A DNA stretch of 64,000 bases, taken from Ignavibacteriota bacterium. GTDB taxonomy: Bacteria > Bacteroidota > Ignavibacteria > UBA10030 > UBA6906. Positions within the stretch are counted from its first letter, which is position 1. Each line of letters opens with the position of its first letter. Below the pieces are notes generated by a model, which saw nothing but the letters and a program-made list of their open reading frames with translations, made no database searches and was not told the origin of the DNA. The stretch lies in contig CAWDEM010000008.1 of the NCBI GenBank assembly GCA_963801355.1, forward strand, positions 1,952,001-2,016,000. The letters run 5' to 3'. A program made the position numbers and the translations under genes. Below are positions 38,104-53,393 of the stretch, piece after piece.

Positions 38104-38197
38104 TGTTCCTCTCCGTAATGTTGAAAGATGAGTCTGTTTGTCGTACTTTATGCCATTCACCTTCTGCCTGTTCATGTCATTAATAAGTGAAAGGTAA

Positions 38198-38782
38198 ATG
38201 AAATCTCCGCTGCTTTTTTTCGATAGCGATGCCCGGATTCTGGATGGCATCCGGCAGGGAGATGAATCGGCGCTTGTGACGCTGTATGAAGCCCACCGGC
38301 GGCCAATTACGGCACATGTGATGCGCAATAACGGCACCCAGGATGATGCGAATGATGTCTTTCAGGAAGCCCTGGTCATTCTCTGGGAGCGCGTACGAGC
38401 CGGCAACTATCAGCACACTGCAGCCCTGGGGACATTCCTGTATGCCACAGCACGGAACCTCTGGCTCCGCCGCCTTGCCGTCGCATGGCGCGAAAGGCCG
38501 CTGGATCCAGACAGCGATGGCACCTCCAGCGATGATCCTTCACCCCTGGAAGATCTCGTCGCACACGAGACCACCACCGCCGTGCGGGACGCCCTGGACC
38601 GGCTGGGTGAACCGTGCCGCTCCCTTCTCGTGCTCTTCTATTGGGAGGAGGCGTCGATGGAGGAAATCGCCCGGCAACTGGGCCTGGCCAATGCGGCCAC
38701 AGCGAAATCAAAGAAGTATCAATGCAAAGAGCAACTCAAACGTTTGATGGAAGGAACCACCCACGGCCATGAACGGGGCTGA
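38198..38782 (+). CDS. ECF sigma factor
   Basis: Region 2 DANDVFQEAL...TFLYATARNLW; region 4 LGEPCRSLL...SMEEIARQLG. Confidence 0.9.
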   Translation: MKSPLLFFDSDARILDGIRQGDESALVTLYEAHRRPITAHVMRNNGTQDDANDVFQEALVILWERVRAGNYQHTAALGTFLYATARNLWLRRLAVAWRERPLDPDSDGTSSDDPSPLEDLVAHETTTAVRDALDRLGEPCRSLLVLFYWEEASMEEIARQLGLANAATAKSKKYQCKEQLKRLMEGTTHGHERG

Positions 38783-39806
38783 GAACAATCATCTCCTGCC
38801 GGAGACTATCGAAGATGCCGCCCTGGGGCGTCTGACACCCGACGAGCGTTCGAGAGTCGAATCCCACGTGCGCGACTGCGCCCTCTGTAGGGAGGCAATG
38901 GAACAGGAACGACTCATCGCCGCCGGAACAAAGGCATGGGGCCGCGCGGCTATGAAACAGAAGTTGGCGGGCCGGATTGCGGCCGCATCACAACAACGCA
39001 CACCCTGGCCTCACATCCTCTCGGCAGCCGCACTTCTGATTGTTATCATCGGTGTCGGCGTGCTCTTCCGATGGCGCTCCACCAACCGGGAACCGGAAGT
39101 GTCCTATTCCGATTCGGTCCTTTCGGGCGAATCGACAAAGAACGCCCCAACGGCTCCGGCCCCCTCTATCGCATCCGAGGAATCCTTCCGGGACCAGCTG
39201 CGTGAAAAGGACTCCCCTGCCGACCATGAAATCAGCCGACAGGACAAGAAAGGTGCACCCCGGACCGGGGCTCAGATGCCAGCGACCCGCACGGAAGCGG
39301 CGGCTGCCGAGGAACTGAAGAAACCGGCACAGGAACTGCCTGGTCCGGAGCAGCCTGTGTTGATGAAGTCAGTCACGGCTGACGAAGCCGTGAAGTCACC
39401 GGACATGGACGTCTGGGTGGAAGGCATGCAGTGGAGCACTCCCTACACCGGCGGCATGCAGACCCAGCCGGCCGGCGCTTCGAACCAGGGGGTGTCGGCG
39501 AACAGGCTCGAAGCACGCAGCAAAGCCCTCAAAAACGAAATGGCGCCGACTCCTGTTTTTGTCATTAACCAGCGTCCGCGAGGAGAGTTGCACGAGACTC
39601 GAGGGGGCGGCAAAGCAATAAAGACCACTCCTGCACATGTCGTGCGGGCGGGAGACACTCTGTACGTGACACTGTACCTGGATACGCTGTTGACTCCGCA
39701 GCAGCTGCGGTCGACCTTCGGACAGCAGGCGACGCCGGATTCATTTCACATCATGCTCCCCGACAGAATTCTCGGGTACAGAATCCCGGGGGGTCTTGCG
39801 CATTAG
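38769..39806 (+). CDS. Zinc-finger (HxxxCxxC) transmembrane anti-sigma factor
   Basis: HVRDCALC, single TM, periplasmic low-complexity region; overlaps the sigma gene end. Confidence 0.85.
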   Translation: MNGAENNHLLPETIEDAALGRLTPDERSRVESHVRDCALCREAMEQERLIAAGTKAWGRAAMKQKLAGRIAAASQQRTPWPHILSAAALLIVIIGVGVLFRWRSTNREPEVSYSDSVLSGESTKNAPTAPAPSIASEESFRDQLREKDSPADHEISRQDKKGAPRTGAQMPATRTEAAAAEELKKPAQELPGPEQPVLMKSVTADEAVKSPDMDVWVEGMQWSTPYTGGMQTQPAGASNQGVSANRLEARSKALKNEMAPTPVFVINQRPRGELHETRGGGKAIKTTPAHVVRAGDTLYVTLYLDTLLTPQQLRSTFGQQATPDSFHIMLPDRILGYRIPGGLAH

Positions 39807-39911
39807 TGCTACGGCGTAAGACCTGTGACAACCGATGGAGTGTTCTGACCGCAACACTCTTCTGCACCTTCTGAGCTTGACATCACATCTCTCTACTGCA
39901 CCCACTCACTT

Positions 39912-41441
39912 TTAATGCTTCTGCGAGAACCAGAGAGGGAGATACGTGCGGGCACCGTATCCCGGTATGGCCAGTACGTTATCCACTTCTGCTGAATTGT
40001 CCGGGCCGTCGAGTGACGACCAGTGATGATAGTATCCCGCCGCCTGCACGAAAACGGTCCTGTGCATCCCATTTGCGAGCGACGGGACCGGATAGGAGAG
40101 GAGGACCGTGTCTCCCATCAGAGATGTGAGATAGCTGTCGTCCCGGTTCGCAACGAGCGGGGTGCAATCCGCTCCCCTTGAACCGGTCGCTGTCGCTGCA
40201 CGTACCGTCACACACTTCACTGGCATGTCTATCGACTCATCCACCCCGATCTGGTCTATGCGCCAGAGATCTGCCGTGCATTCAAGTCGGACGCGGAGTA
40301 CGCGTGCCCCGGGAGAAGGTACCGGCACGACGAGGATCTGTTCCTTCAGCAACTCTTCACCGGAGTCCATGAACACACCGGCCTTCTGCCACTCCGTGCC
40401 ATCCCAGACACTGACATGGAGCAAGCCCTCGCGCAGGAGAAACCCGCGCATCTGGTTCCCCTTGGCGGGGTCGTGCTCCAGCCTTCGAATCCATTGGGCG
40501 TATCCGCTGCCGCAAAGCTCTGAAAGTCGGTTGAATGTGAAAGAGGGCAGGAGCGTATTTTGTCCTCGCATCAGCAACTTCACCGATCCGGAGTTGCTCT
40601 TCAACTGGAACTCCGCCTCGAGCCGGTCGGTGAATTCCTCGGAATCGCCCTCCGACCCAACGTGCTTTTGACTTTCCCACAGGAGCCCGTCAGGTTCCCT
40701 CACAACTTCAAGCACCGACCCGGCGTTTCCATCGACACACTTCACGGGAGGCAGCAACGACGTAACGGTGTGGAACACTCCATCGGCTGAAGCCAGGACC
40801 TGAACATCATCCTGAACATCGACAGCGGAGAGTGTGAGTTCATTCACATAGTCTGTCTCCAGCCGCTCATTCATCAGTTTGATCAGATATTCGCCGTTGG
40901 ACGGCTCGATGTGCTCCAGGCGGTCGATCACCCTCCGTTCAGCGCCTTTATATATAGAGCCGGCAAAGGTCTCAGACGAAAGGACGAATCGGGATCCATC
41001 GAATGCGTAGACGAATGGACATGACCGAGTTTGTGGGTATGTAATATGATCAGTTGCCTCAAGGCCGTTTGTCGTCTGGAAGGCCGTTGCTACGAGACCG
41101 ACGGTTGAGCCGACGAGGCCAGCAAATACCACGGATTTGAAGAAATTGCCCTCTTTCAGATAAAGGTAGTCGATGGAATCGAGCGGGATTTGTCCGTCAT
41201 ATACAACATCCTCACCCTTCTGTAGCAGGCCTGCGAATTCCAATGTGCTATCCCTGAGAGTGTAGCGATCCAACCTGTATTCAGAACCATCGCGTGTGAT
41301 CACCACGAGCGGCTGCTGTTCTACACGCGGGCTGAGGTCAGAACGATTTGTTACCTCCCGGTACGTGTAGAGATAGGAACAGCCGGACATCGCCAGGAGT
41401 GCAGCAACGCTGGCAGCGACAACGAGATTCTGGATCATCAT
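39912..41441 (-). CDS. Lipoprotein of unknown function with an SCPFVY-type domain
   Basis: Lipobox LAMSGC; internal hydrophobic helix; SCPFVYAFDG...NERLETDY motif. Confidence 0.75.
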   Translation of the reverse strand: MMIQNLVVAASVAALLAMSGCSYLYTYREVTNRSDLSPRVEQQPLVVITRDGSEYRLDRYTLRDSTLEFAGLLQKGEDVVYDGQIPLDSIDYLYLKEGNFFKSVVFAGLVGSTVGLVATAFQTTNGLEATDHITYPQTRSCPFVYAFDGSRFVLSSETFAGSIYKGAERRVIDRLEHIEPSNGEYLIKLMNERLETDYVNELTLSAVDVQDDVQVLASADGVFHTVTSLLPPVKCVDGNAGSVLEVVREPDGLLWESQKHVGSEGDSEEFTDRLEAEFQLKSNSGSVKLLMRGQNTLLPSFTFNRLSELCGSGYAQWIRRLEHDPAKGNQMRGFLLREGLLHVSVWDGTEWQKAGVFMDSGEELLKEQILVVPVPSPGARVLRVRLECTADLWRIDQIGVDESIDMPVKCVTVRAATATGSRGADCTPLVANRDDSYLTSLMGDTVLLSYPVPSLANGMHRTVFVQAAGYYHHWSSLDGPDNSAEVDNVLAIPGYGARTYLPLWFSQKH

Positions 41442-42205
41442 GGCGTTGGCCCTCCTGAAAAGTGAAACAGGATTCTTGCGCCAGCCGAGAAACTGGAGAA
41501 ATTGGCGCTGCCGCGGTGGGAATTGGACGTGGAAGGCTGCACAAGATAGTAGGACCCGTCCAGAATCACCGAAAAATCCTCTATGAGTTCCAACTCCACC
41601 CCTCCACGAAGAAATCCCCCAAACTGCTGAGCCTCCATGTTGACCCCGCTGAGAATCCTGCCATTCCCCAGGGCGGCGTCATATTTCGCAGCGACGGTCG
41701 TACGGAAGAAGACAATCCCGGGACCGACGAAGCACTGGAAGAAGTTGTTGCCGGCAAACGACGGCATGTAGTATATGCCCAAGGTGCCCGCATAGATCCT
41801 GCTCTTCTCCTCGAAATTCCATCCACCTTCAAGATTCACCCGGAACTTCGAGGAGAAATCTATGCCGAATGAGACCCACATGAGCGGCGATGGAGTGAGT
41901 GTCAGAATGCCCTTGCCGACCTCAATCTCTCGCTTGAGATAGCTCTCCTCCCTGTCTCTCAACACTTGCTGAAGCCCATCAAAGTTTGGGCTGTAGCTTG
42001 TGATCCCGATTGTTCCGAACAGGTGCGGGTAGAAGCGCTTCTCGACGCGATCATGCCGGAATGCGTGGGGCAAGAATTCCGACTGCTCGCGAGATGCTCC
42101 TGCCACCGTTCCGGGACCTCTTTTGAGAGAGTCTCCCTTGCTGTATTGTGCATTTGCAGGAAACATCGCCGCACAGAGGAGGAGAAAAAGAAGGAGTGTT
42201 CGCAT
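41438..42205 (-). CDS. Small outer-membrane beta-barrel protein (OmpW/OmpA-barrel-like)
   Basis: Signal peptide; amphipathic strands ending FSAGARILFHF; 4-nt overlap with the lipoprotein gene. Confidence 0.65.
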   Translation of the reverse strand: MRTLLLFLLLCAAMFPANAQYSKGDSLKRGPGTVAGASREQSEFLPHAFRHDRVEKRFYPHLFGTIGITSYSPNFDGLQQVLRDREESYLKREIEVGKGILTLTPSPLMWVSFGIDFSSKFRVNLEGGWNFEEKSRIYAGTLGIYYMPSFAGNNFFQCFVGPGIVFFRTTVAAKYDAALGNGRILSGVNMEAQQFGGFLRGGVELELIEDFSVILDGSYYLVQPSTSNSHRGSANFSSFSAGARILFHFSGGPTP

Positions 42206-42276
42206 CGCGCACCTCTATTTCAAAAAGCATCACCCACCAATCTGGCCGCTTCCTCTTGCATCAGGAATCACATGCA

Positions 42277-42318
42277 AATGTAGCCCGCGGCTCCGGCTTC
42301 CATGTCACGGAAATGTCA
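42277..42318 (-). promoter_or_regulatory. Activator-type promoter C: direct-repeat box + -10
   Basis: Minus strand TGACA-TTTCCG-TGACA-N20-TACATT. Confidence 0.75.
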
Positions 42319-42381
42319 AAGGACTTACATATTCTGTTTGGGGAGTACAAGTGGCCTTCGGATGTCCCCCTGGCAGGAAGG

Positions 42382-42485
42382 TCAGGCTAAAAAGTCCCAG
42401 AATCAAGCCTGGGGAAAACCTCAGGCTTTTTTGTAAGGCTTTCTTGTCAGGGAAAAAACTCAGGCTATTTTGTCAGGCTTTTTTC
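42382..42485. repeat. Degenerate 13-bp tandem array (TCAGGCTTTTTTG-like, 8 in-phase units)
   Basis: tcaggctaaaaag / tcccagaatcaag / cctggggaaaacc / tcaggcttttttg / taaggctttcttg / tcagggaaaaaac / tcaggctattttg / tcaggcttttttc. Confidence 0.75.
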
Positions 42486-42517
42486 TATGTCCCAGGCTTC
42501 ATTTTATGTCCAATACT

Positions 42518-42559
42518 TGACGAATCTTTGACAACCCTCCCCCCCGGAACGCCTAATTT
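42518..42559 (+). promoter_or_regulatory. Activator-type promoter A: direct-repeat box + -10
   Basis: TGACG-AATCTT-TGACA-N20-TAATTT, upstream of RBS GAGGAG and ATG 42588. Confidence 0.75.
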
Positions 42560-42587
42560 ATCATCAGGAAATTAGAGGAGCTCAGCA

Positions 42588-43547
42588 ATGGAATCTCAAA
42601 TCACCACCCTCCGCGCTATGTGGATCACCATGCGCCCGTATCTGCTATTCGTTTCAGGGATTACGGGTATCGCCGGAATGGCGCTCAGCTCCACTACATC
42701 GGCTTTGCCGCTCTTCTCTGTATTCATCGCGTCATTCTTTGCCTACGGCTTTGGCCAGGCACTCACCGATTGCTTCCAGACCGACACCGATTCGATCTCT
42801 GCCCCTTACCGGCCGCTCGCAGCCGGTAAAGTCTCGCGCACGGCCATTCTCGTCATGAGCCTCCTCGGCCTCACAGCATGCGTCACCATTCTGGCCCTCA
42901 GAAATCCCTGGAACCTCGCCATCGGTCTCACAGGCGCCGCTGGACTCGCAACGTATACCACATTCAAACGGCGCTGGTGGGGTGGACCCTGGTACAATGC
43001 CTGGATCGTGGCCGGTCTTTGTGTCATGGGATTTCTCGGCGCAAACGGCGAAACACCGGCCCTGTTTCCGGCCGCCTTTCTCCCTATGCTTGCCACCGTC
43101 TTCTTCGGCTACGCCAACTTCGTCCTTTCAGGATATTTCAAGGACATCCGGGCTGATGCTGCCACCGGGTACTTGACATTTCCCGTGACCTTCGGGCGCC
43201 GGCCAGCCGCGATCGCCAGCGACCTTCTCGCCGTGCTCTTCCTGGCCTCGTCGGTCTGGGTCGCCATCATTGTGCTGGGCTCGACACAGCCCGAATCTTC
43301 TCATTTTTGGGCGCTGATCTTCGCCGTCCCCGGTGTCACGTATCTCGTGACTGCACAGATCCGGCTCCACCGGAATCGCACGGATCAGGAGGCATACGCG
43401 CCAATCCTCCGCGTGGTCCACGCATACATACTTGTCCTTTCTGCGCTGGCCTCGCTGCTGCATCCGGGATGGACTGTACTGCTTGTCATCCACTACACTC
43501 TCTTTGTTTTCGTTCTCTCCCGCCGCCCGGAGGTATCACAGATATGA
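42588..43547 (+). CDS. UbiA-superfamily prenyltransferase (chlorophyll synthase/DGGGP synthase-like)
   Basis: MRP start, multiple TMs, Asp motifs TDCFQTDTDSISAPYRPLAAG and FKDIRADAATG. Confidence 0.85.
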   Translation: MESQITTLRAMWITMRPYLLFVSGITGIAGMALSSTTSALPLFSVFIASFFAYGFGQALTDCFQTDTDSISAPYRPLAAGKVSRTAILVMSLLGLTACVTILALRNPWNLAIGLTGAAGLATYTTFKRRWWGGPWYNAWIVAGLCVMGFLGANGETPALFPAAFLPMLATVFFGYANFVLSGYFKDIRADAATGYLTFPVTFGRRPAAIASDLLAVLFLASSVWVAIIVLGSTQPESSHFWALIFAVPGVTYLVTAQIRLHRNRTDQEAYAPILRVVHAYILVLSALASLLHPGWTVLLVIHYTLFVFVLSRRPEVSQI

Positions 43548-44470
43548 TGATTCTGCTCAATCCACGGGCAGCGGGAGGAAAGGCGCCGGAAAAATGGCGC
43601 AGGATCTCTGCAGTCCTCCCACCCCACCGGGAGAGAATTGAATTTTGTTTTCTGAATTCGCACACGGACGTGGACGAGCTCGTGGAAAGAGCTGCCAAGC
43701 AGGGAGAATTGCACTATGTTGCCGCCGGAGGGGACGGGACAGTCAATGCTGTGGTCAACGCCCTCATGCGCCTTCCAGACGGACTGCGCAAGCGGGTTGT
43801 GTTCGGGGCCGTAGGACTGGGTTCCAGCAACGACTTTCACAAGCCTTTTGACACCGACCATACCATCGAAGGTGTCCCTGCAAGGTTGAACTTCGCGCGT
43901 CCAACATGGCGCGATGTCGTCCGCGTGGGAACCTCATTCAACGGCCAATCGTCTGTGCACTATTTCCTGATCAATGCAAGTGCAGGTATTGCAGCCGAAG
44001 GGAATGCCCTTTTCAACAAACCGGATTTCCTTCTGGCATGGTTGAAGATGCATGCTACGCCGCTGGCGATCCTGTATGCTGCGCTTCGTGCACTTGCATT
44101 CCACCGGAACCGTCCGCTCACCATCGAATCACCGGGGCATCCGGCGCAGCAATACCGCCTGACAAATCTCGGCATCGTCAAGAATCCTCATTTCTCGGGC
44201 TCACTGCGCTACGATATGCCGGCTCTCTATGACAACGGCAGCATGGGCGTGTTCGTAGCAGAAGAGATGAACCTGTGTGAACGCATTCGTCTCCTCCGGG
44301 CCCTATCATGTGGCGACTTCGGCCGCCTTGCGAAAACGCACACATGGCAGGCTTCTCATTTGACCATTGCAGCTCCGTCATGCTTTCCCCTGGAGCTTGA
44401 CGGTGAAATCCATCAGGCCAGTCGCGCCGAATTTTCCGTATTGCCCCGAATCCTACAGGTGTGCTCATGA
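43544..44470 (+). CDS. Diacylglycerol/sphingosine kinase family (YegS/DAGK_cat) lipid kinase
   Basis: LNPRAAGG, AAGGDGT, GLGSSNDF, LDGE; ATGA overlap with ubiA-like gene. Confidence 0.88.
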   Translation: MMILLNPRAAGGKAPEKWRRISAVLPPHRERIEFCFLNSHTDVDELVERAAKQGELHYVAAGGDGTVNAVVNALMRLPDGLRKRVVFGAVGLGSSNDFHKPFDTDHTIEGVPARLNFARPTWRDVVRVGTSFNGQSSVHYFLINASAGIAAEGNALFNKPDFLLAWLKMHATPLAILYAALRALAFHRNRPLTIESPGHPAQQYRLTNLGIVKNPHFSGSLRYDMPALYDNGSMGVFVAEEMNLCERIRLLRALSCGDFGRLAKTHTWQASHLTIAAPSCFPLELDGEIHQASRAEFSVLPRILQVCS

Positions 44471-45519
44471 TGCAACAGATACATGAAAATAGCTTCATCG
44501 CCCGTCTGGCATCATTCCTGCCTCATCAGCCGGCTCAGCTGAACGGTCTCCAGGAAAGCGATGCCGAGTTAATACGATTGCCCGGGGATGCACATCACAT
44601 CCTCGCCGTCACCACAGACGCAATAGTTGAAGAAATCGAGGCCGGTCTCTATGCCGACCCCTACCTCATCGGCTGGATGACCGTGATGTCAAATCTGAGC
44701 GATCTCGCGGCCGTCGGCGCGGAATCGATCGGACTCCTCGTGGCTGAGACACTCCCGCACGATGCTGCCGAGGAGGATCTCATAGCCCTCCAGACTGGGA
44801 TCCGCGATGCGTGCGTACGGTGTGGCACCTTCGTCCTGGGAGGAGACACCAACTTCAGCGACAGCTTCCGTACGACGGGAACGGCAATGGGGCTGATAAC
44901 GAATGGTTCACCTCTTATGCGCGTCCGATGTGCACCGGGCGAGATCCTGTACTGTACCGGCCGCCTCGGCACCGGGAATGCCTACGCCGCTCGCCAGCTC
45001 TCCGGAGACACACATCCAAATCCCACACTTTATCGCCCGGTCGCCCGCCTGCGGGAAGGCCTCTCTCTCCGCTCCGTTGCTTCCACCTGCATGGATTCCA
45101 GTGACGGCCTGTTTGCATCGCTCGATCAGCTCGGGCGGCTCAACAACTGCGGATTTCAATTGGAGATCGGGTGGGAGAACCAAATAGCGGATGAGGCGTC
45201 ACGTTTCGCAATGAGTTCCGGCCTGGATCCCTGGATGCTCTTTGCCGGTCCTCACGGAGAGTTCGAGCTGGTGTTCACAGTCCCGGAACCCCTTGTCGCG
45301 ACATTGCATCTGGCCGCCGCCAGGGCGGGATGGACTCCCATCCGGCTTGGTGTTGTGAGCGAAAACGCCGGTATCGGTCTGGGAGACTGGGGTCATTTTG
45401 ACCCGGAAGCCCTTGCTGCAATCAGAAACCACCATCTTCGTAGTAGTGCTGAAGTCCGCGCATTTCCTCGTTTTTTGGCAGTTCTGGCGGAAGGATGCAG
45501 GAATTCGACTGAAGGATGA
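44467..45519 (+). CDS. ThiL-like kinase (PurM/AIRS superfamily), divergent thiamine-monophosphate kinase homolog
   Basis: TTDAIVE, SNLSDLAAVGA, LGGDT, MDSSDGL, GEFELVF; ATGA overlap with DAGK gene. Confidence 0.8.
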   Translation: MMQQIHENSFIARLASFLPHQPAQLNGLQESDAELIRLPGDAHHILAVTTDAIVEEIEAGLYADPYLIGWMTVMSNLSDLAAVGAESIGLLVAETLPHDAAEEDLIALQTGIRDACVRCGTFVLGGDTNFSDSFRTTGTAMGLITNGSPLMRVRCAPGEILYCTGRLGTGNAYAARQLSGDTHPNPTLYRPVARLREGLSLRSVASTCMDSSDGLFASLDQLGRLNNCGFQLEIGWENQIADEASRFAMSSGLDPWMLFAGPHGEFELVFTVPEPLVATLHLAAARAGWTPIRLGVVSENAGIGLGDWGHFDPEALAAIRNHHLRSSAEVRAFPRFLAVLAEGCRNSTEG

Positions 45520-45558
45520 CAAAACGGTGACATCTCCCCGCCCCCCATGGCGTAACTT
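45517..45558 (+). promoter_or_regulatory. Activator-type promoter B: direct-repeat box + -10
   Basis: TGACA-AAACGG-TGACA-N20-TAACTT before ATG 45587. Confidence 0.75.
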
Positions 45559-45586
45559 GCAGTAGTTACACAACGGGAGATCGAAC

Positions 45587-46906
45587 ATGAAGACCGATGG
45601 TGTCTATCAGGGTGGAGAGAATTTCGACCTACGCGACGTCCTGCTGAAAGGACGATCGCTTCCCCTTTCCGAGCGAACCGCCTTTTTCCAGAGTTTCCTG
45701 CAGGATGTGAGGCAGCGTGAAGAAAACCTCTGTATGCGGTGCCTCACCTCGCCCTCAGACCGCGAAGTCACGATTCTGGATCCCTCGTCAGGTACCGAAC
45801 GGAAGATGCTCATGTTCGGCTCAAACAACTATTTGGGCCTTGCCACACACCCACATGTCATCCGGCAGACGGCAGCGGCGGTGCAGAGGTATGGCGCGGG
45901 TTTGGGCGGGCCGCCACTCCTCAACGGATATACCGCGCTGCACCGGGAGCTCGAAGAGCGCCTCGCCGCACTGAAGGGAACAGAGGATGCGATGATTTAC
46001 TCGAGCGGTTATGGCGCAAATGTCGGCCTGGTGTCCGGGTTGACGGGAAAGTCGGATATCATATTGTACGACGCCTACAGCCATGCGTCCTTCTGCGATG
46101 GCATTGCACTGTCCGGTGCACAATCGTTTCTCTTCTCGCACAACGATCTCTCGCATCTGACCATGTTGCTGGATCGTGCCCGCACCCGTCCGCATAACGA
46201 CATCTACGTCGGCGTGGAAGGTGTCTATTCGATGGATGGGGATCTGGCGCCGCTGAACAGAATCCTCGAGCTCTGTGATGCCTATGGGGCACATCTGATG
46301 CTTGATGACGCTCACGGCACAGGGGTGTTGGGAGGACACGGAAGAGGCAGCGCCGAACAGGCCGGGGTGGAAGGCCGTATTCCGATGACGATGGGAACAT
46401 TCAGCAAAGCATTCTCGGCCACGGGAGGATTCGTGGCTGCAAGCAAAGCAATCATCGATTACCTCAGGTACTTTGCGCGGTCGTATATGTTCTCTGCCTC
46501 GTTGCCGCCCGCAACGGTCGCAACGGTCATCGCCGGATTGGATGTCCTGGAACGTGAACCTGAAAGACTCCTGCGTCTCCACGAGAACGTAACATATGCC
46601 GCACAGCACCTCAGGAGGATGGGATTTGCCACTCCCGCGCAATCGGCAATTCTCCCTCTTCGCGTGCCGCAGGGGATGGACATTCGTCAGGCTTCCAGGG
46701 TATTCCATGAGAGGGGTATCTTCGTCAACTCTATCGAGTACCCTGCTGTCCCCGTATCCCAGCAGCGATTCCGCATCAGCATGATGGCAACGCACACGCA
46801 CGAGGATATTGACCGCCTGCTCGCGGTTGTCGAAGAAGTCTGGTCACTCCAGCGCCATGACATGAGGGAGGTTGCAGATGAAGCACATCAGCGCAATGCC
46901 GCATGA
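45587..46906 (+). CDS. PLP-dependent alpha-oxoamine synthase (serine palmitoyltransferase/Kbl/BioF family)
   Basis: GSNNYLGL, GYGAN, HAS, EGVYSMDGD, DDAHG, GTFSK (PLP Lys). Confidence 0.9.
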   Translation: MKTDGVYQGGENFDLRDVLLKGRSLPLSERTAFFQSFLQDVRQREENLCMRCLTSPSDREVTILDPSSGTERKMLMFGSNNYLGLATHPHVIRQTAAAVQRYGAGLGGPPLLNGYTALHRELEERLAALKGTEDAMIYSSGYGANVGLVSGLTGKSDIILYDAYSHASFCDGIALSGAQSFLFSHNDLSHLTMLLDRARTRPHNDIYVGVEGVYSMDGDLAPLNRILELCDAYGAHLMLDDAHGTGVLGGHGRGSAEQAGVEGRIPMTMGTFSKAFSATGGFVAASKAIIDYLRYFARSYMFSASLPPATVATVIAGLDVLEREPERLLRLHENVTYAAQHLRRMGFATPAQSAILPLRVPQGMDIRQASRVFHERGIFVNSIEYPAVPVSQQRFRISMMATHTHEDIDRLLAVVEEVWSLQRHDMREVADEAHQRNAA

Positions 46907-48308
46907 TCGGAAGAAACTCCTGATCATTGTCCTCTTTCAAAATCTTGGAGAAGACAACCCGTACTACGCACAGAGTCCTGCGCCGCCATTGCCCGGGATT
47001 CTCCTGGCTGCTCTCACGCCGGATATTGTGGACATCGAAGTCCTGCACGAGATGGTCCGCCCGATCGATTACAGCACCGATGCTGATTTCATCGCGCTCA
47101 GTTTCATGGACTACCTTTCGCCACACGCATACGACGTGGCTGCCCGGTTCCGGGCAATGGGAAAGGTTGTGGTCGGCGGAGGGAAATACGCGTCCACGTT
47201 TCCTGATGAAGTACAACCGCACTTTCATGCAATCCTCGTGGGAGAAGCACAGGAAGTGTGGCCGCAGATGGTCAGCGATATGGTCAACGGCACGCTCAAG
47301 GAACGGTACGAGGCGTCGGCATCACCGTCACTCGAGAATATACCCCCGCCCCGCTACGACCTTGTCGAGAAAGTGTATGCGACGCCCATCGTCACGGAAG
47401 CCACGCGAGGCTGCCCGCATCCCTGCACATACTGCCAGCTGAACATCAAGCGGATGCCCTTCCGCCAACGCCCGATTGCGGACGTCGTCCGTGACCTTTC
47501 AGCGACACAAGGCCTGCCGTGGTACAAGCGGAAAATGGCGATGCTATTGGATAACAATCTCGGCGGGGATCTTACCTACGCCAAGCAGCTGTTGCGTGCA
47601 ATTGCAGGGCTCCGGCTCTGGGGACTGGGCGTGCAGTTCAGCATCGAGTGCCTGCGGGATGATGATTTCATCGAGGCCCTGGCAGAGGCACGCTGCCGCA
47701 TGGCATTCATCGGCATGGAATCTCTTGAACCGAAGAGTCTCGCCGCCGTACAAAAGCGACAGAACAACGTCATGGAGTACCGGTCGATGTTTGAGCGGCT
47801 CCATCGGCGGGGAATACTGACATTTACCGGGTACATGTTTGCACTCGACGAAGACACGACGGAATACTACGACCGGCTCCCCGCACTTCTTGAAGAGGTC
47901 GGGACAACCGTGATCCTGCCGTCCATCGCCATCCCGCTGTACGGCACACCGCTGTACAGGACGGTCGTCGGCGAAGGACGTCTTGTTGACCGGGACCTGT
48001 CGCATTACGAGGGTGACCACATCGTATTCCGGCATAAGCATCTGAGCGAAACTCAGATCCATGAAGCGTATGCCCGGGTCACGATGGGCTTCTACGGCTG
48101 GAAGAACATTCTGAGCCGCTGGGCAAGGTTCATGGGAAAGCAGGAGAAACGGGGATCATGGCGCGCATTTGTCCTCCAACTTCTCATTCTCACATTCATT
48201 TACACGAAGCTGTCGATATTCCAGCGGCACCATGCATTGGTAAGAATCACAGGTGCAAGGAAAGAGGCGGAACCAGCAAGGAAGCAGGAAGAAAAGTTGG
48301 CGGCGTAG
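46878..48308 (+). CDS. B12-binding-domain radical SAM protein
   Basis: N-terminal Rossmann B12 domain (VVVGG), RGCPHPCTYC, IGMES, PLYGT. Confidence 0.88.
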   Translation: MKHISAMPHDRKKLLIIVLFQNLGEDNPYYAQSPAPPLPGILLAALTPDIVDIEVLHEMVRPIDYSTDADFIALSFMDYLSPHAYDVAARFRAMGKVVVGGGKYASTFPDEVQPHFHAILVGEAQEVWPQMVSDMVNGTLKERYEASASPSLENIPPPRYDLVEKVYATPIVTEATRGCPHPCTYCQLNIKRMPFRQRPIADVVRDLSATQGLPWYKRKMAMLLDNNLGGDLTYAKQLLRAIAGLRLWGLGVQFSIECLRDDDFIEALAEARCRMAFIGMESLEPKSLAAVQKRQNNVMEYRSMFERLHRRGILTFTGYMFALDEDTTEYYDRLPALLEEVGTTVILPSIAIPLYGTPLYRTVVGEGRLVDRDLSHYEGDHIVFRHKHLSETQIHEAYARVTMGFYGWKNILSRWARFMGKQEKRGSWRAFVLQLLILTFIYTKLSIFQRHHALVRITGARKEAEPARKQEEKLAA

Positions 48309-48414
48309 GTCCGACCCCAACCGATTGATGATTGTCACTAGTCTATTGACTATTGACAAGTGGTCCGGGTCTGACCCCTTGTGCATGGGGAAGACATAGG
48401 GGTTTGACCCCTAT
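48307..48414. repeat. Three REP-like GGGGTnnGACCCC palindromes between convergent genes
   Basis: AGGTCCGACCCC (48307), GGGTCTGACCCC (48367), ATAGGGGTTTGACCCCTAT (48396). Confidence 0.6.
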
Positions 48415-49091
48415 TTTTGAAATTTGTACCCTGCTGTATGCACCGTGATAATGTGCCTGGGTTTCGTCGCATCGTCCTCGAGTTTCTTCCGGAGAGCCAG
48501 GATATAATTGTCGACCGTCCGTGTCGTGGGAAAGGTTTCGTACCCCCACACCTGGTTCAGCAGCATGCCACGCGTGACCACTTCTCCCTCGTGCTGCACG
48601 AGAAACTTCAGCACTGAGTATTCGCGCACGGAGAGCTTTACCTTCCTTCCTTTCCGCGTCGCCTCCTGTCGGACGAAGTCGACTTCCACCTCTCCGAATG
48701 AGCACGTTTCAATGTCCTTCGTCAATCCCCCCTTACGCCTCAGAAGGGCCCTGACCCGGGCGAGCAGTTCGCGGACGGAAAACGGCTTCGTCATATAGTC
48801 ATCGGCACCCATTTCCAGCCCGAGCACCTTGTCCATCTCCATCCCCTTGGACGTGAGCATCATAATCGGGGTGGATACGCCGCTCCCGCGCAGCTCTTTG
48901 CACACATCCTCCCCGTTGATGTCCGGAAGACCCAGATCCAGGATGATCAGGTCGACGTGTTCATTGCGTCCCAGGGCAAGACCGCGTGCGCCGTTGGGAG
49001 CCGTCAGAACCGTGTAGTGTTCCTTCTCCAGAACGTCCTGCAGCCCCAGCTGAATGGAAGCATCATCTTCAACGATGAGTATGGTCTTCAT
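48411..49091 (-). CDS. OmpR/PhoB-family response regulator
   Basis: ATG 49091 MKTILIVEDD, LDLGLP, GADDYMTKPF, wHTH TRTVDNYILALRKKLE. Confidence 0.95.
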   Translation of the reverse strand: MKTILIVEDDASIQLGLQDVLEKEHYTVLTAPNGARGLALGRNEHVDLIILDLGLPDINGEDVCKELRGSGVSTPIMMLTSKGMEMDKVLGLEMGADDYMTKPFSVRELLARVRALLRRKGGLTKDIETCSFGEVEVDFVRQEATRKGRKVKLSVREYSVLKFLVQHEGEVVTRGMLLNQVWGYETFPTTRTVDNYILALRKKLEDDATKPRHIITVHTAGYKFQK

Positions 49092-49092
49092 G

Positions 49093-51603
49093 TCAGCGGG
49101 AATCCCTCTTGTTGGTGGGACTTCGTTTGCGGGCCTTCTTGACCGTTGGCGGGAGGGGAAACACCAGGGTGAATGTGCTCCCCTTTTCCGGCACACTACG
49201 GACTTCAATCTTTCCCCCGTGTGCATCCATGATGTGCCTCACGACGGAGAGCCCCAATCCGACTCCTTGAATGCGCCTGGGCAGTGACGGGTCGCGGTAG
49301 AACTTCTGAAAGAGGTGCGGCATCACCCCGGCAGGTATTCCGCGTCCGAAATCCTTCACGCTGCACAACACCGTCTTGCCCGTCCTGCCGACGGTGATAC
49401 AGATCTTTTTCTTGTCGCCCGAATACTTCATGGCATTCGTCAGCAGGTTCAGCAGCGCCTCCCTGACCGCGTCCGGATCGGCATTGATCCGGTAGGCATC
49501 AGGCGACTTGCTCCGCCCGTCCCGCGCGACGTCAAGAACAACGCTGTACTGTTCCTTTGCCAGTTGATACTTCATCGTCTGGAGGGTCTCACGGACAAGA
49601 GCATCCAGCCGCACGTTCTGCATGGTGTACTGTTGTTCTCCCTGGTCGATTTTGGACGAGTCCAGAATGGTATTCACCATGCGGTGCAATCGATCTGATT
49701 CGCCTTCAATGATGCGCACATATTCCCGGGCACGCCGGTCGCCGCGGGGGAGCCGTTCCGCAAGGAGTTCGGCAAACATCCTGATGGAGGTCAGCGGCGT
49801 GCGCAGCTCATGAGAGACATACGAAACGAAATCGGACTTCATGACGTTCAGCCGCTGCAGACGGCCGGCTTCATCACTCTTCTCCATCACCGCGCGCTGG
49901 AGCAGGATGCGCTCCATTTCCGCACCCCCCTGCATCGCAAGGTTGCCGAGCAAATCCACATCCTCGCTGGTAAACACCGTACCGGCCTTCTTCCGACCCA
50001 GGAGCAGCATCCCGCGCAATTGCCGGTTGGCACGAATCACGGGGCAGACAAGAGCCAGCTGACATTCTTCAAGGAGTGATGCATCAGCTTCACGATGGGA
50101 GACTCCCGGCTCGATCGCACCGGGGAGTCCGAGAAGTATCCCCCCGGCTTCCTCGGCATGCCGTTTCAGCACCGCGAGGCGATCCGGTGGTCCTGTCTCA
50201 ATCCCCCGCGCGCCGATGAGGCGCAATGCACCGTCGTGATCCACGAGCAGGAATCCGATCCGTTCCACCGGCAGCAGCGTATCGATGCGCTCCACGATCA
50301 GATTCCCCAGATCGTCGACCGTCGCGCATGTCTTCACGTCCCCCTGAAATCTGCGGGCCGCCTGCCGGAAATCGTACCGCACGCGGAAGAATCGTCGATC
50401 CACAGCCTGTTGCACAACCCGGCGCGTCGGCTCGAACAGCAGAGCGAGCACGATCGCCGCCCCCGCAGAAATACCCAGCGACCATCCATACGTGGCATGG
50501 GACACCACTGCAGCTAATCCTCCCACGATGCCCATGTAGACCAGCACCACCATCGCCATGACCGTGCCATAGACCAGACTGCGATTGAGCAGCAGATCAA
50601 TGTCCATGATATGGTATTTGATGATGGAGATGCCGAAGGCCACCGGGATGATACCGGAGGCCAGCAGCATGACCGACTCAGGAACGAGCCCGTAACTCAA
50701 CACCATGGAAGGAATGATCCAAAGCAGGACAAAGGGCAGGAAACCGACGAACATCCCCCAGACCACCCAGCGGAGTTTTCTCCGTTCCGGTTCCTCGCCG
50801 GCTCTGAGGTACGACTGACGTATTGCCCAGAGTCCCCCGGCAACCAGCACAATAAGAAACACCCGTGTGGCACTAAACCACTGGAGGTGCGTGTGGAATG
50901 CGTCGATAGAGTTGCCAGACCAGGCCTGCATGAAGGACATGCCGCTGCCGGTGGCGAGAATGATCGCGGCGCCGTACAAGGGGATGATCAGTCTTCTTCC
51001 CGGTGTTGTGCTGGGGCGAGGAAAGAGGCGCGTCAGATGGAAAAATGCAACCGGGATGAAAGCATACATTGCAGAGAACACAACGCGGACAAGCACTCCG
51101 AGGAAGGCGGGAGCGGTTACGTAGGAACCCCACGTCGTGGAAAGCTGCACCGCCGTGGCAACAGATCCGAAGTGATAGACGAGTGCGGCGGGATCCCCGG
51201 GTTTCTTCCAGACAACGATTAGTCCGACGCCGAAGAAAAGGGTGCTGACGAGGATCACTGACAGGAGGTAAAAAGGGCCGTAGTAATGCTGCAGAACAGC
51301 CTGTTCGATGCGCGGCCCGGTTGCGCCGGCGATGCTCAGGGTCACGGTATCGCCTATCCGGCAACCGTCCAACACAAACTCCAGATCATCCACATACTTC
51401 AGGGGGTGCCCGTTCACGGCGAGGAGGGCCTCACCATCGCGCATCTGTTTTGTGAAAGACTCCCCGGTGACCCTGGTGCAAAAGACGGTATCATTCCAGG
51501 CGCTGATGACAATGGGCAGTCCGGGCTTCGCATTGATCTGCACAATGCCCGCACAACAGAGGATGAAAGCGACGACATCGATCAGGACAATCAGAATGCG
51601 CAT
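49093..51603 (-). CDS. Sensor histidine kinase: TM-PDZ-like-multi-TM-GAF-HisKA-HATPase
   Basis: GEALLAVNG (PDZ-like), many TM helices, GAF (FTSEDVDLL), SHELRTPL, NLLTNAMKY, DFGRG, GVGLGL. Confidence 0.9.
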   Translation of the reverse strand: MRILIVLIDVVAFILCCAGIVQINAKPGLPIVISAWNDTVFCTRVTGESFTKQMRDGEALLAVNGHPLKYVDDLEFVLDGCRIGDTVTLSIAGATGPRIEQAVLQHYYGPFYLLSVILVSTLFFGVGLIVVWKKPGDPAALVYHFGSVATAVQLSTTWGSYVTAPAFLGVLVRVVFSAMYAFIPVAFFHLTRLFPRPSTTPGRRLIIPLYGAAIILATGSGMSFMQAWSGNSIDAFHTHLQWFSATRVFLIVLVAGGLWAIRQSYLRAGEEPERRKLRWVVWGMFVGFLPFVLLWIIPSMVLSYGLVPESVMLLASGIIPVAFGISIIKYHIMDIDLLLNRSLVYGTVMAMVVLVYMGIVGGLAAVVSHATYGWSLGISAGAAIVLALLFEPTRRVVQQAVDRRFFRVRYDFRQAARRFQGDVKTCATVDDLGNLIVERIDTLLPVERIGFLLVDHDGALRLIGARGIETGPPDRLAVLKRHAEEAGGILLGLPGAIEPGVSHREADASLLEECQLALVCPVIRANRQLRGMLLLGRKKAGTVFTSEDVDLLGNLAMQGGAEMERILLQRAVMEKSDEAGRLQRLNVMKSDFVSYVSHELRTPLTSIRMFAELLAERLPRGDRRAREYVRIIEGESDRLHRMVNTILDSSKIDQGEQQYTMQNVRLDALVRETLQTMKYQLAKEQYSVVLDVARDGRSKSPDAYRINADPDAVREALLNLLTNAMKYSGDKKKICITVGRTGKTVLCSVKDFGRGIPAGVMPHLFQKFYRDPSLPRRIQGVGLGLSVVRHIMDAHGGKIEVRSVPEKGSTFTLVFPLPPTVKKARKRSPTNKRDSR

Positions 51604-51642
51604 GGGCGAATATACGCATTCATTTGGTCCTCCGCCAGCACA

Positions 51643-51671
51643 TTGCATTTACACCTCTTTTTCGGTATACT
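51643..51671 (+). promoter_or_regulatory. Sigma70 promoter of smpB-tyrS
   Basis: TTGCAT-N17-TATACT. Confidence 0.65.
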
Positions 51672-51695
51672 ATGCCCGAATTTTCCCCGGAGACA

Positions 51696-52160
51696 ATGGC
51701 ACCCCAGGAGGAAGCCGGCGAGAAAGTCGTCGCATCGAACCGGAAAGCCCGGCATGAATATGCAATTCTTGATTCAATCGAAGCCGGCCTGGTCCTGACG
51801 GGGACAGAAGTCAAGTCGCTGCGCCAGGGAAACGCGAACATTGCCGAGGCGTTTGCACGCATAGCCCGGGGCGAGGTCTGGCTGGAGGGAATGCATGTCA
51901 GCCCGTACGAACAGGGCAGTTATGCCAATGTCGACCCGTTGCGCACACGAAAACTCCTCCTCCACAAGAAAGAAATCCGGCGGCTTCTCGCCCGCAGCGG
52001 GGAACCGGGTGTAACGCTGATTCCGCTCAGGGTGTATTTCAAGAAGGGTGTCGCAAAGGTACAGCTCGGCATCTGCAAGGGGAAACGGGCGTATGACCGC
52101 CGCCAGGACATCGCACGCCGGGAAATCGAACGAGACCTCAAGAGAACCTACGCACGGTAG
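51696..52160 (+). CDS. smpB: SsrA-binding protein
   Basis: NRKARHEY, EAGLVLTGTEVKSLR, RKLLLHKKEI, GKRAYDRR. Confidence 0.97.
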   Translation: MAPQEEAGEKVVASNRKARHEYAILDSIEAGLVLTGTEVKSLRQGNANIAEAFARIARGEVWLEGMHVSPYEQGSYANVDPLRTRKLLLHKKEIRRLLARSGEPGVTLIPLRVYFKKGVAKVQLGICKGKRAYDRRQDIARREIERDLKRTYAR

Positions 52161-53393
52161 ATGAACGAACAGTTTCCACCGCTGAATGAACAGATGGATG
52201 TGATCCGTCGCGGAACAGCCGAGATCATCCGCGAAGAAGACCTTGCCCGCAAGATCGAACAATCCCTCCAGACGTTTACACCCCTCCGCGTGAAACTCGG
52301 GTGCGACCCGAGCCGGCCCGATCTGCATATCGGTCACTCGGTCGTCCTGCGCAAACTCAGACAGTTCCAGGATCTGGGGCATCAGGCAGTGCTCATCGTG
52401 GGGGATTTCACGGGCATGATCGGCGATCCTTCAGGACGAAGCAAGACCCGGCCTGCGTTGACGCTTGAGGAGACCCGCAGAAACGGTCAGAGCTACTTCG
52501 AGCAGGCAACACGTATCCTGTCCACCCACAAAGTCCAGATGCTTTATAACTCCGAATGGCTGGGAACGCTGAGCTTCGCGGACGTGATAACGCTGGCAAG
52601 CAAATACACGGTGGCCAGGATGCTGGAACGCGATGATTTCGAGAAGCGTTACCGCGCCGGCGAGGCCATCAGCGTGCACGAGCTTCTGTATCCTCTCGCA
52701 CAAGCGATGGACTCCGTCGCTGTTCGTGCGGACATCGAGCTGGGGGGCACCGATCAGAAATTCAATCTTCTGGTTGGACGGGACATCCAGCGGGAATACG
52801 GTCAGGATCCGCAGGTGACACTGACCATGCCGATTCTCCCCGGGACCGATGGTGTCGAGAAAATGAGCAAATCGCTCGACAACTTTATCGGCATCAGCGA
52901 ACCTCCCCAACAAATTTATGGAAAGACGCTCTCCATCCCGGATACCTTGATCTACGACTACATGCAGCTGGCGACCGAGATCCCCCCGCCGGAACTCGCT
53001 GAAGTCAAACGGCAACTCGAGAGGGGTTCGGTCAATCCCCGCGACCTCAAGCGTCGCCTGGCCCGCGAGCTGGTCACGCTCTACCATGACGCCGCGGCGG
53101 CTCAGGCAGCGGAAGAAGAGTTCGACCGGATCTTCAAGAAGAAGGATATCCCCGACGAGATACCCGAGGTCAGGGTGACGACGGAAGGCGGCACAGCCAG
53201 CATCATCCGCATGCTCGTGGAAGCCGGCATGGTGAAATCCAACAGCGAAGCCCGCCGGCTGGTCGAGCAAGGCGGTGTCAGTATTGACGGCGTGCGCATC
53301 GACGATCCGGCGGCGACTATTATCCTGAACGTCCCGGTGGTTCTCAAAGCGGGCAAAAGGCAGTTCGCACGCATCACCGGCTCACAAGGCTGA
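52161..53393 (+). CDS. tyrS: Tyrosine--tRNA ligase
   Basis: GCDPSRPDLHIGH, GGTDQKFN, KMSKS, C-terminal S4 domain. Confidence 0.97.
   Translation: MNEQFPPLNEQMDVIRRGTAEIIREEDLARKIEQSLQTFTPLRVKLGCDPSRPDLHIGHSVVLRKLRQFQDLGHQAVLIVGDFTGMIGDPSGRSKTRPALTLEETRRNGQSYFEQATRILSTHKVQMLYNSEWLGTLSFADVITLASKYTVARMLERDDFEKRYRAGEAISVHELLYPLAQAMDSVAVRADIELGGTDQKFNLLVGRDIQREYGQDPQVTLTMPILPGTDGVEKMSKSLDNFIGISEPPQQIYGKTLSIPDTLIYDYMQLATEIPPPELAEVKRQLERGSVNPRDLKRRLARELVTLYHDAAAAQAAEEEFDRIFKKKDIPDEIPEVRVTTEGGTASIIRMLVEAGMVKSNSEARRLVEQGGVSIDGVRIDDPAATIILNVPVVLKAGKRQFARITGSQG

Follow-up and report, generated by a model that had tools for sequence, protein, structure and literature searches.

A conserved, probably two-component-controlled lipid/envelope gene cluster built around UbiA-, DAGK- and ThiL-like enzymes in Ignavibacteriota and other bacteria

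A 64,000-nt stretch of contig CAWDEM010000008.1 from an Ignavibacteriota bacterium (hereafter the window, in whose numbering all gene coordinates are given) contains, within positions 39912-51648, nine genes in four units that very probably represent a conserved lipid or envelope regulon controlled by a two-component system (TCS). At its centre lie the genes of a UbiA-superfamily prenyltransferase, a DAGK/YegS-type kinase and a ThiL-like kinase, followed by those of an alpha-oxoamine synthase (AOS) and a radical SAM (rSAM) enzyme (Table 1). The triad of UbiA, DAGK-like and ThiL-like genes, usually accompanied by the rSAM gene and often by an SDR gene, is the conserved core of the cluster, whereas the AOS is a lineage-specific addition of Ignavibacteriota and Bacteroidota. 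All of these enzymes belong to known families, and full-text literature searches returned no description of their combination in a TCS-controlled lipid cluster. The explanation as a whole, an inducible envelope-lipid regulon with a chemistry deduced for its enzymes, is evenly balanced between being right and being wrong.

The open reading frame (ORF) listing of the window and its translations confirm the gene layout that an earlier, sequence-only reading had described: translationally coupled genes, an overlap of the AOS and rSAM genes, a TCS convergent on the rSAM gene and a divergent pair (hyp255-hyp509) on the other side of UbiA. Both junctions of the triad are ATGA overlaps, in which the DAGK-like ATG at 43544 lies on the UbiA TGA and the ThiL-like ATG at 44467 on the TGA of the DAGK-like gene. 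The ThiL-like stop and the AOS start are separated by a 67-nt gap, and the rSAM gene begins at an ATG at 46879, preceded by GGAGG, inside the 3' end of the AOS gene, which stops at 46906.

Conservation across related genomes

A profile built from the ThiL-like protein and 17 relatives was scanned against one GTDB genome per species (185,579 species genomes) and detected relatives in 474 of them. The locus counts given here refer to the best 80 loci of these 474 genomes, all of them contigs of metagenome-assembled genomes (MAGs), with presence scored by tblastn using the window proteins. They are labelled Ignavibacteria (24), Gemmatimonadota (23), unspecified Bacteroidota (16), Saprospiraceae (4) and Calditrichia (2), while the other 11 are assigned to Zixibacteria, Planctomycetota, Akkermansiaceae or Lentimicrobiaceae, or are unclassified or doubtfully labelled.

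A lack of co-occurrence in other genomes had been named beforehand as grounds for refutation, but the triad is held together in some other bacteria and across the FCB group (Fibrobacteres-Chlorobi-Bacteroidetes superphylum). All 80 loci have the DAGK-like gene, and 76/80 have UbiA; in the four loci without UbiA, the contig ends inside or just before the DAGK-like gene. The rSAM gene follows with 54/80 and the AOS gene with 49/80, the response regulator is present at 45% identity or more in 32/80 loci, and the kinase of the TCS in 25/80. The proposal that five enzyme families form one unit can be upheld for the triad and usually for the rSAM enzyme, but not for the AOS, which is found in 0/23 Gemmatimonadota loci; there, the rSAM gene lies divergently upstream. 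The divergent pair had likewise been counted as part of the system, which is not supported as such: hyp255 and hyp509 occur together in only 3/80 loci.

Several other genes recur beside the cluster. An SDR gene adjoins it in 27 loci, usually directly upstream of UbiA, and is missing from the window. A small membrane protein with four helices (cluster 8, about 140-200 aa), which belongs to no Pfam family and carries conserved FExAFPxAD and LGxLDxxFY motifs, is encoded beside the triad in 11 loci, mainly of Gemmatimonadota (e.g. L060, L061, L064, L065, L073 and L074). A DUF3419 (BtaA-like) gene is found in 6 loci, in 4 of them together with a GNAT gene, and a fatty-acid hydroxylase and a PhoD-like phosphatase adjoin the cluster in 2 Saprospiraceae loci. 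In two loci, a type 2 IPP isomerase gene is divergent to the UbiA operon (L043 6619-7662 and L052 6726-7769), and its TIGR02151 scores of 393-397 bits exceed the cut-off of 281. Acyl-CoA ligase and FtsX/ABC transporter genes are further, sporadic neighbours.

It is highly improbable that the locus is a chance neighbourhood of housekeeping genes (thiL, bioF/kbl, menA/ubiA). Many source records do annotate the ThiL-like protein automatically as thiamine-monophosphate kinase, but the linkage in 76-80 of 80 loci under eight or more phylum-level labels, the overlapping stop and start codons, an operator that is conserved and common to the units, and the scores of all equivalog models argue against coincidence. 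No cluster enzyme is a recognisable housekeeping orthologue: every equivalog model scored below its curated cut-off, including those for thiL, bioF, kbl, serine palmitoyltransferase (SPT), DGGGPS, ChlG and UbiA, which supports the earlier interpretation. The absence of adjacent thi, bio, ubi and men genes also stood, as none was detected among the 38 other ORFs scanned in the window. No Rfam family, and hence no TPP or B12 riboswitch, matched within 39000-52500, and a tRNA scan found none. The cluster is widespread, and the ThiL paralogue at its centre is regularly given the wrong name of thiamine-phosphate kinase by annotation pipelines.

A shared operator and its two-component system

Three promoters of the window have a common architecture, consisting of a TGACA-N6-TGACA direct repeat, a spacer of exactly 20 nt and TAnnTT. 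The repeat boxes face hyp255 (42303-42318), UbiA (42518-42533) and AOS (45517-45532), and the first three bases of the AOS-facing box, TGACAAAACGGTGACA, are the stop codon of the ThiL-like gene. The identical box geometry at the UbiA and AOS starts indicates that the plus-strand genes form two transcription units. A single promoter motif had previously been assigned to all three units then recognised; it is confirmed for the divergent pair, the UbiA unit and the now separate AOS-rSAM unit, but not for the TCS operon, upstream of which no TGACA box was found and the best match has 4 mismatches. At no more than one mismatch, TGTCA-N6-TGTCA occurs 4 times in the window against 4.47 expected per 64 kb, so there is no excess overall; 3 of these 4 matches fall into about 450 nt of intergenic DNA of the cluster, where about 0.03 would be expected. 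Furthermore, the promoter blocks of the divergent unit and the UbiA unit are conserved in the related loci L001 and L002.

Among the relatives, boxes were counted in sense orientation within 250 nt upstream of a gene. By this measure, UbiA is preceded by a box in 23/53 genes and AOS in 28/46, against a background of 53/3000 random 280-nt windows (1.8%), while none was found upstream of the kinase (0/22) or the regulator (0/36). Nine loci carry a box upstream of the SDR gene, which is the first gene of the unit there. The operator usually takes the form of two or three TTACA/TGACA half-sites with an 11-bp period. A box is located within 4.5 kb of the cluster in 24/24 Ignavibacteria and 12/16 unspecified Bacteroidota loci, and in only 2/23 Gemmatimonadota loci, which are devoid of an adjacent TCS. 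The idea of TCS-linked co-regulation is supported by the finding that the conserved operator tracks the adjacent regulator gene, with boxes in 29/32 loci that have it and 19/48 that do not; the Fisher P of 5e-6 overstates this association because the loci are related and not independent. As its presence in the loci goes with the box, the regulator is the candidate, and the probable, binder of the TGACA repeats. The operator is now defined across more than 40 genomes, which makes further regulon members findable by motif search.

The TCS itself is encoded in one operon, in which the kinase stop and the regulator start are 1 nt apart. A receiver and winged-helix regulator encoded together with a HisKA and HATPase_c kinase identifies it as being of the OmpR/PhoB type. 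The best NCBIfam matches of the regulator are YycF (196.6 bits) and PhoB (196.2 bits), both below cut-off (296.2 for PhoB); those of the kinase are PnpS (202 bits) and PhoR (180.6 bits, with a cut-off of 334.2), again both sub-threshold. The kinase has about 8-9 hydrophobic segments. It had been read as a PDZ sensor kinase, of which the kinase was verified, whereas the PDZ domain stays below threshold (PDZ_2, 14.3 bits against a cut-off of 27, E=0.052).

These features raise the question of the inducing signal. One variant, compatible with the chemistry proposed below, holds that the same regulon responds to phosphate scarcity, as a Pho-like programme of membrane-lipid remodelling and extracellular phosphate release; this is possible, yet doubtful. 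The PHO box of Escherichia coli has an 11-bp spacing, and PhoR has an architecture that differs from that of a GAF kinase with many membrane segments. The half-site and spacing of TGTCA-N6-TGTCA match the core CTGTCAT of the E. coli PHO box (PMC4415409), and the cluster shares with PhoR-PhoB and WalK-WalR systems an OmpR/PhoB regulator and direct repeats of 11-bp period over the -35 region. In addition, PnpS and PhoR are the best matches of the kinase and PhoB is joint best for the regulator, 4 loci have the box in front of the gene for a secreted phosphoesterase that is 5'-nucleotidase-like and ends in a type IX secretion system (T9SS) tail, and PhoD-like phosphatases adjoin the cluster in the 2 Saprospiraceae loci mentioned above. 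The DUF3419 proteins of 6 loci belong to a family that includes betaine-lipid synthases used under phosphate starvation (PMC10685587). However, PhoB, PhoR and PnpS all fall far short of their cut-offs, with YycF and PhoB scoring alike, the sensor part of the kinase, with its many membrane segments and GAF domain, is unlike PhoR, and it is genes of lipid enzymes that are targeted. The window contains neither pst nor pho genes, and its divergent unit includes no recognisable phosphoesterase.

Table 1. Genes, promoters and repeat insertion of the cluster, in window coordinates
Feature	Position	Strand	Basis or elements
hyp509, predicted lipoprotein, second gene of the divergent unit	39912..41441	-	ORF; signal peptide and Cys21
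hyp255, first in the divergent unit; secreted, perhaps a small beta-barrel of the outer membrane	41438..42205	-	ORF
Divergent-unit promoter	42275..42318	-	TGACATTTCCGTGACA (42318-42303), 20-nt spacer, TACATTTG (42282-42275)
Repeat-rich insertion	42369..42511	+	Four TCAGGCT copies; periods of 13, 19 and 39 nt; hairpin, then T-run
UbiA-unit promoter	42518..42561	+	TGACGAATCTTTGACA, 20-nt C-rich spacer, TAATTTAT; box ends 55 nt before ATG
UbiA-superfamily prenyltransferase	42588..43547	+	PF01040
Soluble DAGK/YegS-type kinase	43544..44470	+	DAGK_cat and YegS_C
ThiL-like kinase, AIR-synthase superfamily	44467..45519	+	AIRS
Internal AOS-rSAM promoter	45517..45558	+	TGACAAAACGGTGACA, 20-nt C-rich spacer, TAACTT; box ends 55 nt before ATG
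Alpha-oxoamine synthase (AOS), SPT-like	45587..46906	+	Aminotran_1_2
Radical SAM (rSAM) enzyme	46879..48308	+	Radical_SAM; alternative start 46872
OmpR/PhoB-family response regulator	48411..49091	-	Response_reg and Trans_reg_C
Multi-pass membrane histidine kinase	49093..51648	-	GAF, HisKA and HATPase_c; start may be 51603

Enzymes of the cluster

The UbiA protein is a member of its superfamily (PF01040, 93 bits against a cut-off of 34.2), and every NCBIfam equivalog lies below cut-off, reaching at most 65 bits against 181-494. This includes the DGGGPS equivalogs NF009521 and NF009522 (57.9 against 296 and 45.6 against 353). As a single sequence compared with the PDB, it retrieves the DGGGPS structure 6m31 at 1.5e-10, and the family profile retrieves only this DGGGPS (2.7e-13) and the chlorophyll synthase structures 9sau and 9sas (1.5e-8). 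The protein is polytopic, with seven overlapping hydrophobic 19-mers that correspond to about five separate segments. Two Asp-rich motifs are present, as D61, D66, D68 and the D186-x3-D190 pair are invariant in 20/20 sequences. UbiA enzymes usually have NDxxDxxxD as their first motif; here it takes the atypical form TDCFQxDTD.

The two kinases of the triad are both soluble. In the DAGK-like protein, which has no hydrophobic segment, DAGK_cat (62.2 bits against 23.6) and YegS_C (38.9 against 27) are recognised, while the YegS/Rv2252/BmrU subfamily model TIGR00147 stays below its cut-off (65.3 against 118.65). Its GGDG motif (G62, G63, D64 and G65) is invariant, and the nearest solved structure is DgkB (3.8e-7). 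The ThiL-like protein matches AIRS (PF00586, 70.2 bits against a cut-off of 24) and falls short of the thiL model TIGR01379 with 147.6 against 184.15, as do 14/14 other family members (144.6-166.3) and hence 15/15 in all. ThiL 5cc8 is its nearest solved structure (3e-22), and an alignment of the window protein and its 17 relatives shows that the family keeps the metal-binding Asp pattern of the AIRS fold. The consensus N-terminus of the family is MMxxIxEN; an alternative GTG start at 44461 is less likely. Judging by their invariant catalytic motifs, the triad enzymes and the rSAM enzyme look active. One metagenomic protein of 726 aa (P0121) contains UbiA, DAGK and AIRS domains in this order and was considered as a fusion of the triad, but each domain is truncated at the joins and the protein is probably a frameshift or deletion artefact.

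The AOS matches Aminotran_1_2 with 192.9 bits and contains GTFSKA, which we take to be the PLP-lysine motif. Its scores lie below the equivalog cut-offs for bioF (374.9 against 426.45), Kbl (341.2 against 460), SPT-CFB (356.6 against 640) and ALAS (261.1 against 338.55). The SPT chains 8guh and 3a2b are the nearest solved structures (3e-79). This closeness speaks for a bacterial sphingolipid pathway, in which the AOS would act as serine palmitoyltransferase, the DAGK-like enzyme would phosphorylate sphingoid bases or ceramide, and UbiA and the ThiL-like kinase would be side players. Bacterial sphingolipid synthesis comprises Spt, a 3-ketosphinganine reductase and a ceramide synthase, and in Caulobacter it includes a ceramide kinase. 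An SPT-like AOS and a DAGK-family kinase have their places there, and some loci additionally encode an SDR with a weak match to 3-ketodihydrosphingosine reductase (113.6 against 400), a fatty-acid hydroxylase or an acyl-CoA ligase. Nevertheless, such a pathway is an improbable account of the cluster: the AOS is dispensable for the core, being absent in 31/80 loci including 23/23 of Gemmatimonadota with the triad still there, its SPT-CFB score is little more than half of the cut-off, no ceramide-synthase-like gene is conserved in the cluster, and UbiA, the ThiL-like kinase and the rSAM enzyme have no counterpart in sphingolipid synthesis.

The rSAM enzyme reaches 45.3 bits with Radical_SAM (cut-off 29.5). 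Its cysteines C181-x3-C185-x2-C188 are invariant in 21/21 sequences, the mean column identity is 62%, and a C-terminal hydrophobic segment (432-450) is conserved. It had been described as a B12 radical SAM enzyme. The radical SAM assignment stands and the nearest relatives are of the cobalamin type: the best NCBIfam matches are B12/rSAM families, all below cut-off, and TsrM, 9ccb, CysS, AprD4 and TokK are the nearest, distant solved relatives of the profile. The N-terminal B12-binding-like domain, on the other hand, is sub-threshold (PF02310, 21.1 against a cut-off of 32.1). Natural-product clusters commonly include radical SAM enzymes that have a B12-binding domain. Together with TCS control, which would suit a signal, and a match of the AOS to the alpha-hydroxyketone autoinducer synthase model (200.3 against a cut-off of 428), this could point to a diffusible prenylated signal or natural product, for which the AOS would work like an autoinducer synthase, with a small alcohol being activated by the kinases. 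There is little probability in this, given the conserved membrane anchor of the rSAM enzyme, the proximity of UbiA to lipid-building members of its superfamily, a neighbourhood of lipid genes and FtsX/ABC transporters, and the wide distribution and high conservation of the cluster.

Proposed pathway and its alternatives

The proposed envelope-lipid regulon would operate as follows. First, the multi-pass GAF kinase would phosphorylate the OmpR/PhoB-type regulator, which would then bind the TGACA repeats over the -35 region and activate all three units; the regulator would not be autoregulated through the TGACA box. Next, the DAGK-like kinase would phosphorylate a lipid alcohol, most likely a prenyl alcohol, and the ThiL-like kinase would add a second phosphate, as ThiL does on thiamine monophosphate. 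UbiA would transfer the resulting lipid diphosphate donor onto an oxygen of a lipid backbone, which may be a sphingoid-like amino alcohol where an AOS is present (with the SDR in some genomes). Finally, the membrane-anchored rSAM enzyme would modify the hydrocarbon, with C-methylation as the most likely reaction.

UbiA enzymes require a diphosphate donor, and DGGGPS and chlorophyll synthase are O-prenyl transferases that use C20 donors. Because of this need, the chemistries of the two kinases and the three always-coupled genes, the succession of alcohol, monophosphate, diphosphate and UbiA transfer would be the simplest chain, and the proximity of UbiA to DGGGPS and chlorophyll synthase, which are O-prenylating, makes an oxygen of a lipid backbone the probable acceptor. 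ThiL turns a monophosphate ester into a diphosphate (PMC6416309). A donor route through two kinases, in which the DAGK-like and ThiL-like enzymes make the substrate of UbiA, is a tentative proposal. Taken one step further, the product might be an inducible isoprenoid-ether lipid in bacteria, with the kinases converting a prenol into a prenyl diphosphate, and the DGGGPS-like UbiA linking it by an ether bond to a lipid backbone, which in Ignavibacteriota and Bacteroidota would be an AOS-derived amino alcohol; this version is speculative and would more probably fail than hold.

A number of points weigh against this explanation. All 80 loci are MAG contigs, some of them with doubtful taxon labels (Eubacteriales, Dehalococcoidia, Chlorobiaceae), and the recurrent neighbours come from a greedy ORF picker that lost some genes (UbiA in 59 loci compared with 76 by tblastn). 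The box is present in 19/48 loci without a regulator gene and absent in 3/32 with one, which is partly due to short contigs, and the B12-binding domain of the rSAM enzyme is, as mentioned, sub-threshold. An isoprenoid gene adjoins the cluster in 2/80 loci only, and a prenyl-diphosphate synthase beside it was seen in none of the 80. The order of the steps is drawn only from family functions. To our knowledge, ThiL-like proteins have no known action on lipids, and other enzymes with the AIRS fold phosphorylate carbonyl oxygens or selenide and not phosphates.

The steps could also run in a different order, with UbiA acting first, the DAGK-like kinase phosphorylating its product and the ThiL-like kinase then forming a lipid diphosphate that serves as head group or activated intermediate. 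Enzymes of the DAGK family use finished lipids as substrates, among them diacylglycerol, sphingosine and ceramide, which agrees with DgkB as the nearest solved relative, and the gene order of UbiA, kinase and ThiL-like kinase follows the same sequence. However, UbiA would need a separate source of prenyl diphosphate, though this is an ordinary compound in cells, no head-group transferase is conserved in the cluster, and phosphorus-rich head groups fit the hints of phosphate scarcity poorly, which makes this order unlikely.

Relation to known systems

The cluster can be compared with three systems of known chemistry. DGGGPS and chlorophyll synthase, the only solved matches of the UbiA profile, share with the window protein the polytopic fold and two Asp-rich motifs. 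Unlike them, it scores 26-65 bits against 269-436 for the NCBIfam DGGGPS and ChlG equivalogs and has the deviating first motif, and the cluster has no GGGPS or glycerol-1-phosphate (G1P) dehydrogenase gene nearby. FCB bacteria carry DGGGPS-like genes of unclear use (PMC6431249). The cluster may offer a testable function for such enzymes and, if the proposal is true, a function for DGGGPS-like genes in FCB bacteria that have no glycerol-1-phosphate dehydrogenase.

In the case of ThiL, the AIRS fold, the structural match and the Asp pattern are common to both, and the ATP-dependent conversion of a monoester into a diphosphate is likely the same chemistry. The differences are that 15/15 members are below TIGR01379, that the gene is under TCS control in Ignavibacteria and without a TPP riboswitch, and that UbiA and the DAGK-like gene are its partners in 76/80 loci (the contig breaks off in the other 4), while thi genes never are.

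The third system is prenol salvage by VTE5/FOLK, VTE6 and UbiA-type transferases. VTE5 is a membrane protein that depends on CTP. The salvage route, as for phytol in plants, leads from alcohol through monophosphate and diphosphate to UbiA (PMC9782597), a succession that is only proposed for the present cluster. The protein families are unrelated: VTE5 and VTE6 are membrane proteins, whereas the cluster kinases are soluble DAGK-like and ThiL-like proteins. The known prenol salvage genes come only from plants and cyanobacteria (PMC9782597). The cluster supplies candidate soluble kinases for prenol salvage; if the proposal holds, the 'missing' kinases for prenols and prenyl phosphates would have their bacterial genes here. 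Should bacteria of peat, soil and sediment make a new ether or amino lipid with this cluster, the interpretation of lipid biomarkers could also be affected.

Divergent unit and surroundings of the cluster

The divergent partner unit differs between genomes, but its products are always secreted proteins. In 6 loci it encodes an unnamed T9SS-tailed protein, whose gene stands ahead of hyp255-hyp509 in the two closest relatives; in the 4 loci described above, the product is a T9SS protein resembling 5'-nucleotidases. In L001 (6527-7837) and L002 (6470-7870), the gene of a T9SS-tailed protein of about 440 aa is located between hyp255 and the shared promoter, and the corresponding segment of the window, 42206-42300, is without it. 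Because this gene is missing there, hyp255 is now the first gene behind the box.

The hyp509 protein has no Pfam or NCBIfam match and belongs to a large, unnamed family with 2294 homologues at E<=1e-3. Its signal peptide and Cys21, invariant in 34/34 aligned homologues, agree with the earlier call of a lipoprotein, which is retained as a prediction. Hydrophobic segments are located at 1-19 and 100-118. The AlphaFold 2 model (pLDDT 83.7) consists of beta-sandwich domains and a helical hairpin; a Foldseek search of it against the PDB gave TM values of at most 0.20 and no real match, and only unnamed clusters were found in the ESM Atlas. For hyp255, which has no Pfam match, 7 homologues were detected, including the window's own protein. 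It has an N-terminal hydrophobic segment, and among the named clusters of the ESM Atlas it comes closest to OMP_b-brl, OmpA_like and TP_0126. These neighbours give a hint of the outer-membrane barrel that had been claimed, but the AlphaFold 2 model (pLDDT 29.6) is unusable, and the barrel is only suggested.

An insertion of about 140 nt, rich in repeats, separates the divergent promoters (Table 1). Neither L001 nor L002 has it, and it does not recur elsewhere in the window. Its TCAGGCT repeats were considered as a shared motif and rejected: there are 12 in the window against 7.5 expected, 4 of them within 42382-42479, and these sit in the insertion that L001 and L002 lack. Related loci have at most one CAGGCT copy in the 450 nt covered upstream of UbiA, with no runs. 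A scan for the sigma-70 consensus was uninformative, with 5 sites against 5.1 expected.

Within the AOS gene, an antisense ORF of 326 aa (45821-46801, minus strand) lies in a G+C-rich stretch (about 58%) and is most likely spurious. Adjoining the cluster, 36616-39806 encodes a DUF4139 protein, an ECF-type sigma factor and a putative anti-sigma protein, with no associated TGACA box. ORF clustering found both the DUF4139 gene and the sigma-factor gene again in L001, L002 and L029, and the former in L047 as well.

The remaining window is an ordinary FCB-type chromosome with PorV, smpB, tyrS, ATP synthase genes and T9SS-tailed starch-degrading enzymes. A large region for starch and alpha-glucan utilisation spans 674-33032 and comprises GH57, several alpha-amylases (some of them T9SS-tailed), a CBM20 protein and GH31, along with a LacI-type regulator, a MalK-like ATPase, a TonB-dependent receptor, SurA-like and PorV-like proteins, and repeated GDSL-lipase/TPR proteins. 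Beyond the TCS, and unrelated to the cluster, a pyruvoyl-dependent arginine decarboxylase is encoded at 53433-53993 and a multihaem cytochrome c7/cIII-like protein at 62526-63128.

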